Shown: piece by piece, positions 15,686-62,320 of the stretch | Position numbering within the stretch: position 1 is the stretch's first letter | Layout of the letters: the number at the start of each line of letters is the position of its first letter | Origin: Arenicellaceae bacterium | Lineage (GTDB): Bacteria > Pseudomonadota > Gammaproteobacteria > Arenicellales > Arenicellaceae | Assembly (NCBI GenBank): GCA_029246505.1 | Contig: JAQWNC010000015.1 | Span: forward strand, 147,662-211,661 | Direction of reading: 5' to 3' | DNA: 64,000 nt | The notes under the pieces: model-generated | The model's input: only the letters and a program-made list of their open reading frames with translations | Told to the model about the DNA's origin: nothing | The model's database searches: none | Made by a program: the position numbers and the translations under genes

Positions 15686-15874
15686 GCCTTTTATGCTCAA
15701 CTCCGGTTGAAACGTAAAGAAGAGGTTTGCTGAAGAAAAAGTTATTCTAACGGTAGGAAATATTAAAGCCGTCGCCTCGGTTAATATAAAAACCGTGAAG
15801 CATATTTTACATATTATTCTCTGATACTATCCATCTGTGATTTAACTTTCCTAATGTCCTTTGAAGGAGCCAAA

Positions 15875-16417
15875 ATGCATCACAAATTATGCCAACGTAT
15901 TTCGCTAATGCTCGGAGCGATTACTGCAACAATAGTGTTATTTACTCAATCCGCAATGGGGCTAGAGGTTGGCGCAACCGCAGCAGATTTCTCACTACAA
16001 GCATCAGATGGAAATACCTACACACTGTCTCAATTCATTGGCGAGAAACCAGTCGTCATTGCTTTTTTCCCCAAGGCCTTTACCGGTGGATGAACTATCC
16101 AATGTAAAGCACTGCGTGACAGTGCTCAAGAAATACAGGGTTTTGATGTTGCTTATTTTATGGCAAGTGTAGACACACTGGAGACTAACACAGCTTTTGC
16201 GTTAGAACATCAAGCGGGGTTTCCGATTCTGGCAGACCCCAGCAAAGAGATGTCGGCTGCTTATGGTGTGATGAATGCAATGGGTGTAGATAACCGCTGG
16301 ACCTATTATATTGATGCAACAGGCACCATAGTCAAAATCGATAAAGAAATAAGCCCGGCTGCTGCAGGAGAAGTATTAACACAAACCATGAAAGAGTTAG
16401 GGTTTCCTATAAAGTAA
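15875..16417 (+). CDS. Secreted peroxiredoxin (AhpC/TSA, BCP/PrxQ-like) with in-frame TGA at 16091-16093 read as selenocysteine (candidate selenoprotein)
   Basis: Track ORFs 15854..16093 and 16160..16417 share a frame (difference 306). Read-through gives FFPKAFTGG-[TGA][27 protein letters not shown], against the paralog [42 protein letters not shown] lies 7 nt before ATG 15875. The signal peptide ends AMG|LEVG. A hairpin lies just 3' of the TGA. Confidence 0.75.
16108..16126 (+). other. Candidate bacterial SECIS hairpin
   Basis: AGCACTG (16108-16114), loop CGTGA, CAGTGCT (16120-16126). This is a perfect 7-bp stem starting 14 nt after the TGA, with G at the second loop position. No equivalent stem follows the TGC codon of the Cys paralog. 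Confidence 0.6.
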
Positions 16418-37123: not shown

Positions 37124-38230
37124 CTAAAGTCGCATCGGCATTATTAAATATAGTGTGGTCTCTATATTTGGGCTTTTAATAGTACAAGACGTATTTGAAT
37201 CTTGAAGTCCTAATACCACCATATCTGTTTCGAGATTTCTCAATGCATCTAAAATATAATTTACGTTAAATCCAACCTCTACAGACTCTCCTGTGTAATC
37301 TACAACCATCTCATCATTAGCTTGTTCTTGTTCTGGATTATTAGAACTTACTTTTAATAGCCCTGGCTCCAGAAGCAACGAAACCCCTTTGAATTTTTCA
37401 TTACTTAGAATGGCCGCTCGAACTAGAACATTAATAAATTCAGAACACTTTACTTCTACATGTTTTGATAAGTTTGAAGGAATCACACTATTATAATCTG
37501 GGAAACGGCCATCGATTAGTTTGGATTGAAAGATGAGCTGATCTGTCGAAACGCTTATGTGATTAGCGTTAATTTGTACATTAACATCACCCCCGCCTTC
37601 AGAAGATAAAAACCGCTGCATCTCCAAAACCGCTTTTCTCGGGACAATTCGTTGTACTTCTGCTGTTTCTATACCAGAAACAGCTATTTCAGAACGCGCC
37701 AAACGATGCCCATCAGTAGCAACCGTGCGTAAAATGCCCGGCTCAGCCTCAAATAGTAAACCATTTAGAAAATACCGGACGTCTTGTTGTGCCATTGCAA
37801 ACTGCGTTGCCCCTAATAAACCAGACAAATCACTTCGAGACACCTTAAATTCTGAATCCCAATCGTTAACTTCTAACCTAGGAAAATCTTTAGCGGGTAA
37901 TGTTTGCAGTGTAAACCGAGTCCGGCCACTTGAAACTATAACCTTATTCTCTCGTTTGGCATCTAGATTAATTATTGCGCCATCAGGCATTGATCGAACA
38001 ATATCAAACAGCTTCCGAGCGCCAACAGTAATCTCACCATCTTCTGATTCAACCTTATTTAAAAAGGTGGTTATTTCTGTTTCTAAATCAGTTCCTATAA
38101 TAGTTAAATGATTAGAAACTGATTTAATAAACACATTACCTAAGATTGGAAGTGTTTGTCTTTTTTCGACAACACCTACTACGTAAGTTAATGGCTTGAG
38201 TAATGTTTCTTTTTTAATACTAATTTTCAT
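37124..38230 (-). CDS. dnaN: DNA polymerase III beta sliding clamp
   Basis: 368 aa. MKISIKKETLLKPLTYVVGVVEKRQTLPILGNVFI and C-terminal LIMPMRL. Confidence 0.96.
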   Translation of the reverse strand: MKISIKKETLLKPLTYVVGVVEKRQTLPILGNVFIKSVSNHLTIIGTDLETEITTFLNKVESEDGEITVGARKLFDIVRSMPDGAIINLDAKRENKVIVSSGRTRFTLQTLPAKDFPRLEVNDWDSEFKVSRSDLSGLLGATQFAMAQQDVRYFLNGLLFEAEPGILRTVATDGHRLARSEIAVSGIETAEVQRIVPRKAVLEMQRFLSSEGGGDVNVQINANHISVSTDQLIFQSKLIDGRFPDYNSVIPSNLSKHVEVKCSEFINVLVRAAILSNEKFKGVSLLLEPGLLKVSSNNPEQEQANDEMVVDYTGESVEVGFNVNYILDALRNLETDMVVLGLQDSNTSCTIKSPNIETTLYLIMPMRL

Positions 38231-38450: not shown

Positions 38451-39791
38451 TTACCCGCCTAATATTTTGAGTAAACTATTATAATCGTCTTTTATCAGTG
38501 CATCTTCCTTTATGAGCGAATTAATTTTTCGACAAGCATGTAAAACCGTTGTGTGATCTCTACCCCCAAAAGCATCGCCGATATCAGGTAAGCTAAGATT
38601 AGTTAGTTCTTTTGATAGGGCCATTCCAATTTGTCTGGGTCGAGCAATTTGACGGTTACGCTTCTTAGAGTTTAAATCTGAAACACGCATATTGTAGTAA
38701 TCAGCAACCGTTTTTTGAATATTTTCTACAGATATTTTACGTTTCTGAAATAGTGTTAAATCTTGTAATGCCAGCTGGGCGCTTTCCAGGTTTATAGCGT
38801 TTCCCGTAAATGCTGAGCCGGCTATTAATCGGTGTAGCGCGCCCTCTAATTCCCTTACATTAGATTTAATGTGTTTGGCGACCATAAATGCTACCTCTTC
38901 TGGCAACTCAACAGACTTTTCTTTTGCTTTATTTCTTAGAATAGCAACCCTTGTTTCTAGTTCTGGGGGATCAACTCGAACAGTAAGACCACTTTCAAAT
39001 CTAGAGATTAACCGTTCTTGGACACCATCAATTTCTTTTGGGAACCGGTCACTTGCAATAATTATTTGACTGCCCGCCTCCATTAAAGTGTTAAATGTAT
39101 GAAAAAACTCTTCTTGTGATTGGCTTTTACCTGAAAAAAACTGAATATCATCAATTAGTAAAGCATCTACAGAACGGTAATAGGCTTTAAAATTATTCAT
39201 TTTCCCGCGTTGTAATGCTTTTACCATATCTGAAACAAAGCGTTCTGAATGTATATATATAATTTTTCTTGATTTGTTCTTTTCAATAATGTTTCCAGCA
39301 GCGTGCATTAGGTGTGTTTTGCCTAGGCCTACACCACCGTAAATATATAAAGGGTTATATGCAGAACTGGGATTTTCACCAACTTGTTGAGATGCCGCGC
39401 GGGCGATTTGATTTGATTTTCCTTCTACATGTGATGCAAATGTATAAATCGGGTTAGGGCCACTATCTCCATAAGGTGTAAGCTTAGGGCTAGTAATAAC
39501 TTTTTTAGGATTCACCGTTGCTTCAGGTTCATAATTATCACCAACAATTAATTCAACCGGCATATTTGTAGTTGAGAATAGTTGTACTGTTTGGCTAAGG
39601 GTTTCAGATAAATGTTCTTCAACCCAGTCCTTAACAAACTTATTAGGCGCATATAACAAGCATTTTTTATCTTGCATATCAGCGTGAAGGGGTTTTATCC
39701 ACATATTAAACTCTCTCTCGCCTAATTCGAGTTCCAATTTACTTAGGCATTTTTTCCAAATTTCTTTGTTGCTCAATGAAATCCCCCACAA
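38451..39791 (-). CDS. dnaA: Chromosomal replication initiator protein DnaA
   Basis: 446-aa maximal ORF with a TTG start. AAA+ Walker A GGVGLGKTHL, and the domain IV DnaA signature ALSKELTNLSLPDIGDAFGGRDHTTVLHA. A TTG at 39776 has a better GGGGGA Shine-Dalgarno and may be the real start. Confidence 0.96.
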   Translation of the reverse strand: MWGISLSNKEIWKKCLSKLELELGEREFNMWIKPLHADMQDKKCLLYAPNKFVKDWVEEHLSETLSQTVQLFSTTNMPVELIVGDNYEPEATVNPKKVITSPKLTPYGDSGPNPIYTFASHVEGKSNQIARAASQQVGENPSSAYNPLYIYGGVGLGKTHLMHAAGNIIEKNKSRKIIYIHSERFVSDMVKALQRGKMNNFKAYYRSVDALLIDDIQFFSGKSQSQEEFFHTFNTLMEAGSQIIIASDRFPKEIDGVQERLISRFESGLTVRVDPPELETRVAILRNKAKEKSVELPEEVAFMVAKHIKSNVRELEGALHRLIAGSAFTGNAINLESAQLALQDLTLFQKRKISVENIQKTVADYYNMRVSDLNSKKRNRQIARPRQIGMALSKELTNLSLPDIGDAFGGRDHTTVLHACRKINSLIKEDALIKDDYNSLLKILGG

Positions 39792-40718: not shown

Positions 40719-42422
40719 ATGGAAATACAAAGAAATATTTTAATTGTTACATTAGTAGCACTATCTTTCGTTTTATATCAGCGTTGGCAAGTGTTTCAAC
40801 AAGAGTACATGTTGGAAAATATGATGCCAACACAAACGCGAGATTTTCTAACGAATGAAGGTATTCCAGAGGTTTCTGAAATAATAGTTCAAAGAGTTAA
40901 CGACGTTCCGTCTACGCCAGAGCAGGAAAACCTAGCTTCAGTGGTAGAGATTGAAATCGGAGCGGGCAGTGTTCTAAATATCACAACAGATTTAGTGCGA
41001 GCTAAAATTGATACGGTTGGGGGCTCGGTCGTGTTTTTAGAATTAATTGAAGAGCCTGTATCTATAGAGGAGCCTGATATCGGTTACGAACTGTTCAAAA
41101 CACCAGGCACTGCTCGGGCTCAGGACTCATTTGTTGCTAGAGGTGGTTTAATTGGTCGTGATGCAAGTTTTCCAAATCACCACACGGTTTTTCAATCGGA
41201 ATACAGCTCTTATGAGTTGCTTGATGAAACCTTGCGCGTCCCCTTAAGCTGGATAGATGAGCGCGGTGTTGAATATATAAAGGAGTTTATTTTTCATCGT
41301 GATAGCTATGTTGTGGATGTTAATTATGTAATTAAAAACACATTAACGAATCAAATTAGTGTTTATCCGTATGCGCAGCTGAGCAGGAGTGAACCCGCTG
41401 AGAATAGCGGCAGTGGGTTTGGTCGTTTACCCAGTTATCTTGGGGCGGTAATTTACACCGACGAAGAGAAATACCAAAAAGTAGATTTTGGTGATATGGA
41501 CGAGGAAAACATAAAAGTTCAAACGTCAAATGGTTGGGCCGCGATGATAGAGCACTATTTTGTTGCGGCGTGGTTACCTCGTCGAGGACAAGAAAAAGAG
41601 CTTTATTCTGCTGTATCAAATTCTGGGTTACGAACGATATACAGTATTGGATATAAAGCATTAGAGCCGACAATTATTGCTGCTGGACAGTCAGGCACGA
41701 TTACAGCAGCGCTGTACGCGGGCCCCAAGGAACAATATAGATTACGGGCCGTAGAGGGGGTTTTAGGCCATGAAGGATTAAATTTAACTGTTGATTATGG
41801 TTGGCTTACCGTAGTGGCAAGCCCATTATTTTGGTTGCTAGAAAACATTTTTAAGGTTGTTGGCAATTGGGGGTGGGCAATTATTTTTCTTACGTTGCTA
41901 ATAAAAGCCGTTTTTTATCCACTATCTGCAGCAAGCTATAAATCAATGGCAGCAATGAAGCGGCTACAGCCTAGAATGGCGACGCTAAAAGAACGTTATA
42001 CAGATGATAAACAAAAGTTTCAGGTTGCTATGATGGAGCTTTATAAGGAAGAGAAAGTGAATCCAGCAGGAGGTTGCTTGCCAATTTTAATCCAAATCCC
42101 TGTTTTTATTGCACTATATTGGGTGTTATTAGAAAGTGTGGAACTTAGGCAGGCGGACTTTGCTCTTTGGTGGAATGATCTTTCATCACCTGACCCATAT
42201 TATGTTCTGCCAGTATTAATGGGGGCTTCTATGTTTTTTCAACAAAAGCTAAACCCAGCACCAATGGATCCGATGCAGCAAAAGGTAATGATGTTTATGC
42301 CGCTCGTGTTGACCTTCTTATTCTTAAGCTTTCCACAAGGGTTGGTTTTATACTGGGTAGTTAATAACTGTCTATCTATTGCGCAGCAATGGTTGATTAA
42401 TAAGCGGGCGGGTGCGCTTTAA
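40719..42422 (+). CDS. yidC: Membrane protein insertase YidC
   Basis: 567 aa. N-terminal TM helix, large periplasmic domain, and a C-terminal 60-kDa IMP core (GWAIIFLTLLIKAVFYPLS, GCLPILIQIPVFIALY). Confidence 0.95.
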   Translation: MEIQRNILIVTLVALSFVLYQRWQVFQQEYMLENMMPTQTRDFLTNEGIPEVSEIIVQRVNDVPSTPEQENLASVVEIEIGAGSVLNITTDLVRAKIDTVGGSVVFLELIEEPVSIEEPDIGYELFKTPGTARAQDSFVARGGLIGRDASFPNHHTVFQSEYSSYELLDETLRVPLSWIDERGVEYIKEFIFHRDSYVVDVNYVIKNTLTNQISVYPYAQLSRSEPAENSGSGFGRLPSYLGAVIYTDEEKYQKVDFGDMDEENIKVQTSNGWAAMIEHYFVAAWLPRRGQEKELYSAVSNSGLRTIYSIGYKALEPTIIAAGQSGTITAALYAGPKEQYRLRAVEGVLGHEGLNLTVDYGWLTVVASPLFWLLENIFKVVGNWGWAIIFLTLLIKAVFYPLSAASYKSMAAMKRLQPRMATLKERYTDDKQKFQVAMMELYKEEKVNPAGGCLPILIQIPVFIALYWVLLESVELRQADFALWWNDLSSPDPYYVLPVLMGASMFFQQKLNPAPMDPMQQKVMMFMPLVLTFLFLSFPQGLVLYWVVNNCLSIAQQWLINKRAGAL

Positions 42423-44384: not shown

Positions 44385-44909
44385 CTAATTTGTGGCAATC
44401 GTTACACCAAGCATGCCCAGCATGGTTGAAATGTCCTCAGCAGATGTTGCTGGATTAATGTTGGAATCTATTGCCGTAATTAATCCGTCCACACCGATAT
44501 ATATGGTGTGACGTGAGGCCACGCCTCGGGTATTTAGTACGTCGTAAGCTGACGCTACAACTTTGTTTGGATCACTGAGCAGCGGGAAGTCGGCTTTATT
44601 CTCTTCCGCAAATCCCGTATTTTCCTCTATGGGGTCAACGCTTGCCATAAAGTATGCAGCATCAAACTTTCGGATTAAATGGCCTTTTTCTGCCAAAGAC
44701 TTACATTCAATTGTGCACCCTTGAGTATAAGCTTTAGGGAACCACGCAATAACAACGGCTTTTTGTCCTTTAAAAGTGCTAAGTGTATAAGTCTTTCCGT
44801 CCGACGCCTGCAAAGTAAAATCAGGCGCTATATCACCTACCTCTAATCCAAGTGCGGACGCTGGAAGGATGATAGTGATTACGGCCAGCGCTAGAAATCG
44901 ATTCAACAT
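44385..44909 (-). CDS. Secreted peroxiredoxin (AhpC/TSA, BCP/PrxQ-like), Cys form
   Basis: 174 aa. Signal peptide ending ALG|LEVG. Peroxidatic motif [13 protein letters not shown] (Cys codon at 44715-44717). Collinear with the TGA-containing copy at 15875..16417. Confidence 0.85.
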
Positions 44910-46828: not shown

Positions 46829-48718
46829 ATGACATCTTCAAATCAAAAGTTTGGCGTTATTGTTGTTGGTGGCGGCCATGCCGGTACAGAGGCGGCCTTG
46901 GCGGCTGCTCGCATGGGCGTTCGAACTTTATTGATCACTCACAATATTGAGACAATTGGTCAAATGTCTTGTAATCCCGCGATTGGCGGTATAGGCAAGG
47001 GCCATATTGTTAAAGAAGTTGATGCGATGGGTGGTGCAATGGCAGAAGCAATCGATCATGCGGGCATTCAGTTTCGTACACTAAACGCGAGCAAAGGCCC
47101 GGCGGTGAGAGCGACCCGCGCGCAAGCGGACAGAGTTTTATATAAAGCTGCTATTCGTAAAATTGTTGAAAACCAACAAAATTTAGAATTATTTCAACAG
47201 TCAGTGGATGATTTGGCTATAGAAAACGATCGCGTTATTGGTGTAGATACCCAAATGGGGCTTCGCTTCCTTGCCGATAACGTGGTGTTAACCACGGGAA
47301 CGTTTCTTGGTGGTGTAATTCATATTGGTGAGCAGAACCTTCAGGGAGGGCGTGCCGGTGATGCCCCTGCAAATGCGTTATCAAAACGTATTCGGGAACT
47401 ACCTTTTCGGGTGTCCAGATTAAAAACGGGCACACCAGCCAGGCTAGATGGGCGGACGCTCAATTATGACGTAATGGAATGCCAACCAGGCGATGACCCA
47501 GTCCCGGTGTATTCGTTTTTAGGTTCGACTGAGCAACATCCGCGACAAATCAATTGTCACATCACGTATACCAATGAAAAGACGCACGAAATTATTCGGA
47601 GTGGACTTGATCGTTCACCAATGTATTCCGGCGCTATTGATGGTGTGGGGCCGCGCTATTGCCCGTCGATTGAAGATAAAGTGGTTCGCTTTGCAGGTCG
47701 AACCTCACATCAGATTTTTGTTGAACCAGAGGGACTAAATACTGTTGAGGTTTATCCGAATGGTATTTCTACGTCACTACCATATGATATACAAGAAGCG
47801 TTTATTCATAGCATAGTTGGATTTGAATCAGCGCAGATCATCCGCCCAGGATATGCGATCGAGTATGATTTTATGGATCCGCGAGATTTAAAGCCCACAC
47901 TAGAAACCAAATTTATTGAAGGTTTGTTTTTTGCAGGTCAAATAAATGGTACTACTGGTTATGAAGAAGCCGCTGGGCAAGGGCTATTAGCTGGGCTTAA
48001 TGCGGGGTTGGGGTCACAAGGTAAGCCAGGCTGGTATCCACAGCGGGATCAAGCCTATATTGGAGTGTTAGTAGACGATTTGACTACTGCTGGCACTCTA
48101 GAACCTTATCGGATGTTTACATCGCGTGCAGAGTACCGCTTAATTTTGCGGGAAGACAACGCCGATTTAAGGCTAACCGAGAAAGCGCGAGAACTTGGTT
48201 TGATCGATGAGCGGAGATGGCAGGCATTTAGTATTAAGCGAGAAGCCATCGAGATAGAGAGAGCCCGGCTATCAAGTTTATTTTTGCATCCGAACACACT
48301 TGCGGCAGCGCAATACACGGATGCAACTACAAAAAATATTAGTCGAGAGGTGAATGCTTTAGAGCTGTTAAGGCGTCCTGAAGTTGAATATGACCTTTTA
48401 GTTGGTCTGGATGGCTTCGGCCCGGCAGTTGACGATCCGCTAGTTGCTGAGCAGCTGGATATTCAGGCACGCTACCATGGTTATATTGACCGTCAAAAAG
48501 TTGAAATTAAAAAAAGACGAAACCATGAACAGACAGTTTTGCCTGAGGACATAAATTATACGATGGTTAAAGGACTGTCGAATGAGGTTAAGCAAAAACT
48601 GACGGATTACCGACCAGTTACAATTGGACAGGCCTCCCGGATATCTGGAGTAACACCGGTATCGATCTCAATACTTTTGGTGCATATGAAAAAGCTGTCT
48701 TTGTCTAAAGTGGCTTAA
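46829..48718 (+). CDS. mnmG: tRNA uridine 5-carboxymethylaminomethyl modification enzyme MnmG (GidA)
   Basis: 629 aa. [38 protein letters not shown] and [11 protein letters not shown]. Confidence 0.96.

Positions 48719-60925: not shown

Positions 60926-62320
<1,395 letters not shown>

Follow-up and report, generated by a model that had tools for sequence, protein, structure and literature searches.

A conserved hairpin 3′ of an in-frame UGA as the probable SECIS element of a secreted BCP/PrxQ-type peroxiredoxin

A 19-nt stem-loop (16108–16126) lying just downstream of an in-frame UGA very probably constitutes the SECIS element of a secreted peroxiredoxin of the BCP/PrxQ type. This candidate was put forward in a sequence-only reading of the 64-kb stretch of DNA analysed here as a whole (hereafter the window), and it is now supported by its fit to the four constraints of the bacterial SECIS model, by the conservation of the hairpin in the UGA-containing orthologs and by its absence from the Cys homologs. 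The single sequence under-supported the SECIS reading, and the comparative evidence is decisive. More specifically, we regard the frozen synonymous sites within the hairpin, more than covariation, as the strongest argument for a SECIS element.

A peroxiredoxin gene with a single in-frame UGA

Among the reading frames of the window, the one running from 15854 or 15875 to 16417 contains a single TGA and is otherwise open. Its product carries an AhpC/TSA domain (PF00578, E = 8e-29; PF08534, E = 1e-17), i.e. the PF00578/COG1225-type domain of the Prx (TxxU) family, and its top resemblance in NCBIfam is the Bcp-type thiol peroxidase, with a score under the cutoff. The ATG at 15875 is likely to be the start, because a GGAG motif lies upstream, because an independent metagenome assembly has its gene start called at this same ATG and because the homologs retrieved by protein search are about 180 aa long (Table 1). 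The N-terminal residues, about 28 in number, look like a signal peptide. The TGA falls in the motif P-K-A-F-T-G-G-U-T-I-Q-C, which matches PxxxTxxU as defined in PMC13188914, and in the alignment its column is occupied by Cys in the paralog encoded in the window and in more than 100 Cys homologs. The Cys located four residues past U (U-T-I-Q-C) is a candidate for the resolving Cys. Note that TGA ends two of the 25 long frames of the window, and thus acts as a stop elsewhere in this DNA.

Table 1. Positions of the features discussed, numbered along the window
Feature	Position	Strand	Remarks
Peroxiredoxin gene (AhpC/TSA, BCP/PrxQ-like)	15875..16417	+	180 codons including one in-frame UGA
Probable start ATG	15875	+	alternative in-frame ATG at 15854
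Putative Shine-Dalgarno-like motif GGAG	15866..15869	+	5 nt 5′ of ATG 15875; read from the sequence
In-frame UGA, proposed selenocysteine codon	16091..16093	+	peroxidatic position; aligns with the Cys of homologs
Probable SECIS hairpin	16108..16126	+	7-bp stem (16108–16114 with 16120–16126), 5-nt loop CGUGA (16115–16119)
Conserved hairpin core	16109–16125	+	inner 6 bp and loop; outermost A-U pair 16108/16126 not conserved in the family
Cys paralog (comparator)	44385..44909	–	TGC at 44717–44715; without an equivalent conserved hairpin

The near relatives recovered by protein search have W at the Sec position, are 106-aa fragments or have Cys. Public protein sets mis-annotate the family: among P0002–P0007 and P0100–P0120, Trp stands at the Sec position in some entries, the TGA having been read with code 4, and other entries are 106-aa fragments (MQCKALRDS...) that start at the ATG two codons past the UGA. 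The apparent split ORF of the window would be better annotated as one selenoprotein gene.

A Pfam analysis identified no sel gene among the 10 sel-sized ORFs of the 64-kb window, which encode ALAD, an AI-2E transporter, GpsA, DnaN, an aminotransferase, ATP synthase beta, DnaA, MnmG, an acyltransferase and YidC, and the window contains no tRNA; similarly, ARAGORN detected no tRNA-Sec in 247 related loci totalling 1.6 Mb. That the organism decodes Sec is an assumption, which we base on the persistence of the UGA and the hairpin in at least 119 species. Other in-frame TGAs with long flanks yielded no credible selenoprotein candidate in the window, nor did a scan of the window combining redox motifs and hairpins provide any further one, and, apart from out-of-frame noise, a mini-SECIS scan (hairpin plus TGA) of the related loci picked up no sites other than those of the peroxiredoxin.

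Structure and conservation of the hairpin

The sequence-only reading had AGCACTG pairing with CAGTGCT around the loop CGTGA, with the stem starting 14 nt and the loop 21 nt after the UGA and with G as the second loop base; its coordinates are exact and the spacing agrees with the sequence. Both the MFE structure and the centroid given by RNAfold correspond to this hairpin in 45-, 66- and 121-nt contexts, and the energy of the stem-loop is -9.6 kcal/mol. According to the consensus model of bSECISearch (Zhang & Gladyshev 2005, as summarised in PMC13188914), a bacterial SECIS element has (i) an apical loop of 3–9 nt on an upper stem of 4–16 bp (PMC13188914); (ii) at least one G at loop positions 1 and 2, the next base usually being G or U (PMC13188914); (iii) a UGA-to-apical-loop distance of 16–37 nt (PMC13188914; PMC10778597); and (iv) an MFE of -7.5 kcal/mol or lower (PMC13188914). 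With a loop of 5 nt, a stem of 7 bp, the loop sequence CGUGA, a distance of 21 nt and the above energy, the hairpin falls within all four constraints, and it closely follows, inside the ORF, an in-frame UGA aligned to the Cys of homologs. Such agreement is necessary but weak evidence, since a SECIS-compatible helix follows 4.0% of the 11,328 in-frame codons in the long open frames of the window (a scan of uninterrupted helices under a simplified version of the published constraints) and since the Cys paralog possesses a hairpin at a similar spacing. Taken as a lone sequence, the hairpin is only marginally unusual (p ~0.05): relative to dinucleotide shuffles its z-score is -1.72, with 10 of 200 shuffles folding as well as the native hairpin, and when the 20 residues encoded here are recoded synonymously 5,000 times with the codon usage of the window, 5.2% of the recodings fold as well locally. 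An Rfam scan gave nothing at gathering thresholds, and a permissive scan only a meaningless match to MAT2A (E = 1.2). A small 6-bp hairpin around the UGA itself, present in the fold of the window, was rejected, as the orthologs do not conserve it.

We scanned one genome per GTDB species with a degenerate DNA pattern for AFTGG-TGA-T[I/M]QC, which leaves everything past codon +4 free. The same UGA occurs in at least 119 species-representative genomes, and the matches listed are nearly all MAGs of Pseudohongiellaceae, Pseudohongiella, OM182, Azotimanducaceae and other Pseudomonadales. Comparison with UGA-containing orthologs, which had been suggested as a check, shows that the structure is kept in every one of the matches listed, including at synonymous sites: the sequence (A/G)GCGCUG-CGUGA-CAG(U/C)GCN is found in each at the identical offset, the loop CGUGA is unchanged in 98 of 98 aligned unique sequences and the 21-nt spacing (16094–16114) is the same in all orthologs. 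In 113 unique UGA sequences, the codons used at positions +6 to +10 are, for Ala, GCG (109) and GCA (2); for Leu, CTG (113); for Arg, CGT (113); for Asp, GAC (113); and for Ser, AGT (101) and AGC (12). The corresponding synonymous entropies of these codons (GCG CTG CGT GAC AGY) are 0.13, 0, 0, 0 and 0.49 bits, compared to about 1–1.9 bits at flanking four-fold sites, and all four codons are in use for the Ala right after +10. Altogether, of the 60 conserved degenerate columns (140 codons), the five with the lowest entropy are those of the hairpin, the chance of one given five-codon set occupying these ranks being about 2e-7. The entropy valley is confined to the hairpin codons, i.e. the hairpin is conserved beyond the need of the protein, and it is absent from the Cys homologs, one recent TGC allele of the locus excepted. 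Downstream of the UGA, columns of the family with at least 90% amino-acid conservation display synonymous entropies of 0.8–1.9 bits; a protein sequence conserved past the UGA with free synonymous sites indicates that the downstream part is translated across the family. Purifying selection past the UGA is thus apparent for the family, and is equivocal for the window's own lineage.

In the 98-sequence alignment, 94% of the cells of the 7-bp helix are paired, versus 4–57% when the partners are slid by 1–3 columns; the shuffle controls of this pairing test are inflated by the relatedness of the sequences. No sequence has a mismatch at 16111/16123, where 84 sequences pair G.U, 12 pair G-C and two, the window and L041, pair A-U. 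The pair 16109/16125 is G-C in 95 sequences and U-A in one, an OM182 single-cell genome (L056) in which two non-synonymous changes, Ala-to-Ser and Ala-to-Asp, compensate each other. Two aligned pairs are lost in L041, where a 7-bp stem is regained via a one-base bulge. As to the outermost pair, it is A-U in 32 sequences, G-C in 25 and mismatched in 38, so that the conserved element consists of 6 bp and the loop; the covariation of this pair was not counted as evidence because it follows GC content and phylogeny. All six core pairs are present in 92 of the 94 unique UGA sequences, and the local fold is at -7.9 kcal/mol or lower in all 94. The few changes in the stem keep the pairing, but true compensatory covariation is limited to a single double change among the 98 sequences, because the element hardly varies. 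Importantly, the predominant pair, G.U, would be C-A on the other strand and mismatched in DNA; this points to an RNA structure of the sense strand.

The top consensus of RNAalifold is another helix, in which the FTGG codons (16080–16088) pair with the 5′ arm and the loop of the hairpin (16110–16119) over 9 bp with one bulge, 99% of the cells being pairable in the 98 orthologs. We rejected it as a selected structure: resampling the upstream codons synonymously yields almost the same duplex energy (-13.2 versus -13.9 kcal/mol, p = 0.4), 17% of the other 24-nt segments in these genes form an equally good duplex with the hairpin, the alternative helix is the MFE structure of only three of the 98 sequences (versus 67 for the hairpin) and, in addition, the ribosome would have melted it on reaching the UGA. 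The complementarity arises because the fixed peptide and the fixed hairpin yield it anyway. Gly(-2) is encoded by GGY in 93 of 94 Sec forms versus 68 of 90 Cys forms, a difference confounded by taxonomy.

In the mechanism that we propose, when the UGA occupies the ribosomal A site, the hairpin, 14–15 nt downstream, would be positioned just outside the mRNA entry channel and would still be folded. SelB would then bring the tRNA to the UGA, and selenocysteine would enter the peroxidatic position (TxxU) instead of termination taking place.

Cys homologs and the Sec/Cys alleles of the locus

It had been claimed that the Cys paralog shows no comparable stem. This holds in the sense that the paralog has no uninterrupted helix compatible with the constraints, but RNAfold does fold it into another hairpin (-8.8 kcal/mol), whose stem is interrupted and whose 7-nt loop opens with GG about 20 nt past the TGC; hence folding alone cannot cleanly separate the two copies, whereas the comparative data do. 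In relatives of the paralog type (SLAD/E..GH), synonymous sites vary freely across the equivalent stretch. The paralog adjoins an acyltransferase gene within the chromosomal replication-origin neighbourhood, which spans 34587–62320 and includes dnaN (37124–38230, minus strand), dnaA (38451–39791, minus strand), yidC (40719–42422), mnmG (46829–48718) and the ATP synthase beta gene (60938–62320).

Metagenome contigs were also scanned with a pattern in which TGY replaced TGA and in which Q or E was accepted at codon +3. The resulting 120 loci (L126–L245), together with six TGC contigs (L120–L125), provided 91 unique Cys sequences. The six core pairs are all present in a single one of them, the ~97%-identical TGC allele of the same locus. 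Residues R-D-S are encoded at codons +8 to +10 in 37 Cys forms, where Arg is specified by CGC (23), CGT (11), CGA (2) or AGG (1) and Asp by GAC (23) or GAT (14), whereas in the 94 unique UGA forms Arg is always CGT and Asp always GAC. The mean local fold of these R-D-S Cys forms is -5.9 kcal/mol, versus -10.0 kcal/mol for the UGA forms. With their free codons and weak folds, they indicate that the peptide does not impose the hairpin, in keeping with what the sequence-only reading had maintained. Its further statement, which confines the structure to the UGA copy, needs to be qualified: the Cys homologs are devoid of it, but the TGC allele of the same locus, whose DNA is 97% identical, keeps an identical hairpin. 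A more distant Cys homolog, L233 (CTIQCKALRDSGREI, equivalent to 16091–16135), retains the loop CGTGA and five of the six core pairs; it may represent an older Sec-to-Cys conversion in which the SECIS element has partly decayed.

The TGC allele is carried by L120–L125, six contigs from six JGI samples that are 97.0% identical to the window over 6.5 kb and syntenic with it (UbiE-SCP2-UbiB-Prx-M1 peptidase-DUF6702). In these contigs (e.g. L120:3001–3462), TGC replaces TGA and the hairpin is base-for-base identical, including the rare A-U variant. In all six, moreover, codon 25, within the signal-peptide region, is TAA, so that the gene is called from Met28, without a signal peptide. Since the next-closest relatives (~75–79% protein identity) all have TGA, a recent TGA-to-TGC change leaving a fossil SECIS is the simplest history, and in L120–L125 the gene would be decaying, or else its product would have gone from Sec to Cys and changed location. 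L247, an independent metagenome contig from ENA, is 97.4% identical to the window over 6.2 kb and has the same TGA and the same hairpin as the window, showing that the TGA is no assembly error. We tentatively entertain the possibility that the ~97%-identical contigs stem from one marine population in which Sec and Cys persist as a standing polymorphism at the peroxiredoxin's catalytic residue, TGA in the window and L247 versus TGC in L120–L125. If both alleles were functional, they would amount to a natural Sec-to-Cys replacement experiment, possibly combined with a move from the periplasm to the cytoplasm, caught before decay of the SECIS; a TGA/TGC polymorphism with a retained SECIS would be a modestly useful case for studying Sec loss.

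Compared to its two closest relatives, L247 and L120, the window copy displays eight unique codon differences, seven non-synonymous and one synonymous, all of which lie in the last 46 codons (codons 128–173, 16256–16391). Over the first 127 codons, the window and L247 are the same except for one L247-specific change at codon 114. This clustering suggests a recombination tract, and it could also reflect relaxed or diversifying selection; under strong purifying selection, such a non-synonymous excess would not be expected.

Alternative explanations and relation to known systems

The last observation bears on the possibility that the hairpin is a SECIS element by descent only and that the UGA now terminates translation in this organism, either because the Sec trait has been lost or because the gene is a pseudogene. 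The seven-to-one ratio of unique differences would fit such a relic, as would a sister population with TGC for TGA and a TAA in the signal peptide, which denotes a locus in flux, and the fact that the Sec machinery is not seen in the window. We nevertheless consider it improbable: codons 1–127, with the UGA and the hairpin, are intact; the differences, small in number, are grouped at the end of the gene instead of being distributed across the 107 post-UGA codons, which resembles a recombination tract more than neutral decay; and, with related chromosomes measuring roughly 4 Mb, 64 kb would be ~1.5% of the genome, so that the absence of sel genes says little. Least probable of all, to the point of being negligible, is a hairpin without function, due to chance or to the codons, K-A-L-R-D-S-A simply happening to be encodable as a palindrome. 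True, an equally good hairpin arises in about 5% of the synonymous recodings and after 4% of random in-frame codons, and the peptide K-[AS]-x-R-D-S is found in Cys homologs too; but the synonymous freeze is restricted to the UGA forms and to the hairpin, the Cys forms with R-D-S at this place vary freely and do not fold, and the flanking synonymous entropy of 1–1.9 bits shows that the UGA genomes are not near-clonal at the locus.

An intermediate case, which we still deem very unlikely, is that the element serves another purpose, as a regulator-binding palindrome in the DNA, as the target of an antisense transcript or sRNA, or as a hairpin that makes ribosomes pause or acts on mRNA stability, or that the gene is split and restarts at the ATG two codons past the TGA. 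The sequence is indeed an inverted repeat, and RNAalifold favours the helix formed with the FTGG codons, but this helix does no better than synonymous resampling, and the G.U pair seen in the stem of 84 of 98 sequences would be a mismatch both in DNA and in the antisense strand. As to a restart, codon +2 is ATG in most orthologs and gene callers gave the corresponding 106-aa proteins; however, this codon is ATC or ATT in the window, L029 and L078, and the next in-frame ATG of the window is at 16160, so that the restart is not conserved, and its product would be devoid of the catalytic residue. Finally, the element strictly accompanies the UGA, the recent TGC derivatives excepted. A SECIS element directing Sec insertion at the UGA thus remains by far our preferred reading. 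In practice, its value lies in annotation: our understanding of Sec decoding is unchanged, and the TGA/TGC polymorphism is of minor evolutionary interest. The analysis provides a family-level SECIS consensus for the Pseudohongiellaceae/OM182 group (a 6-bp stem and an invariant CGUGA loop), which can be used to find other selenoprotein genes read by the same SelB.

Like the bSECIS consensus, the hairpin is an in-ORF stem-loop just 3′ of a Sec-UGA, with a small loop containing G then U; nothing substantive differs, the present helix being short and perfect and lacking any lower stem or bulges such as are drawn for some SECIS elements. In the SECIS element of E. coli fdhF, the SelB-binding hairpin has been defined experimentally: SelB contacts an unpaired G-U of the loop, the loop is GGUC, a U is bulged in the upper stem and the stem starts about 11 nt past the UGA. 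The unpaired G-U dinucleotide of the loop and the approximate distance from the UGA are common to both hairpins, whereas the one described here has a CGUGA loop, no bulged U, a stem starting 14–15 nt past the UGA and no sequence similarity with its fdhF counterpart; it thus does not display the fdhF-type combination of a bulged U and a GGUC-type loop. At the protein level, the biochemically characterised PrxU of Eubacterium acidaminophilum (NF040737) is likewise a peroxiredoxin of the thioredoxin fold whose catalytic residue is Sec, but it does not belong to the same equivalog (47.6 bits versus a cutoff of 270). The closest precedent is the Sec-containing Prx family (COG1225/PF00578, TxxU) of marine metagenomes, of which the Sargasso Sea set contained 43 genes and GOS 253 (PMC1088965; PMC2398784), and the Sargasso paper described stable stem-loops with a small G-containing apical loop 3′ of the UGA in known and new selenoprotein families (PMC1088965). 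The present gene shares with this family the AhpC/TSA domain and Sec at the peroxidatic position in (PxxxT)xxU, and belongs to a subgroup that is BCP/PrxQ-like, bears a putative signal peptide and is concentrated in Pseudohongiellaceae, OM182 and Azotimanducaceae; we found no literature linking Pseudohongiella(ceae), OM182 or Azotimanducaceae to selenoproteins. In conclusion, the family has been known for some twenty years as an abundant marine selenoprotein, and the gene described here is a further member of it.
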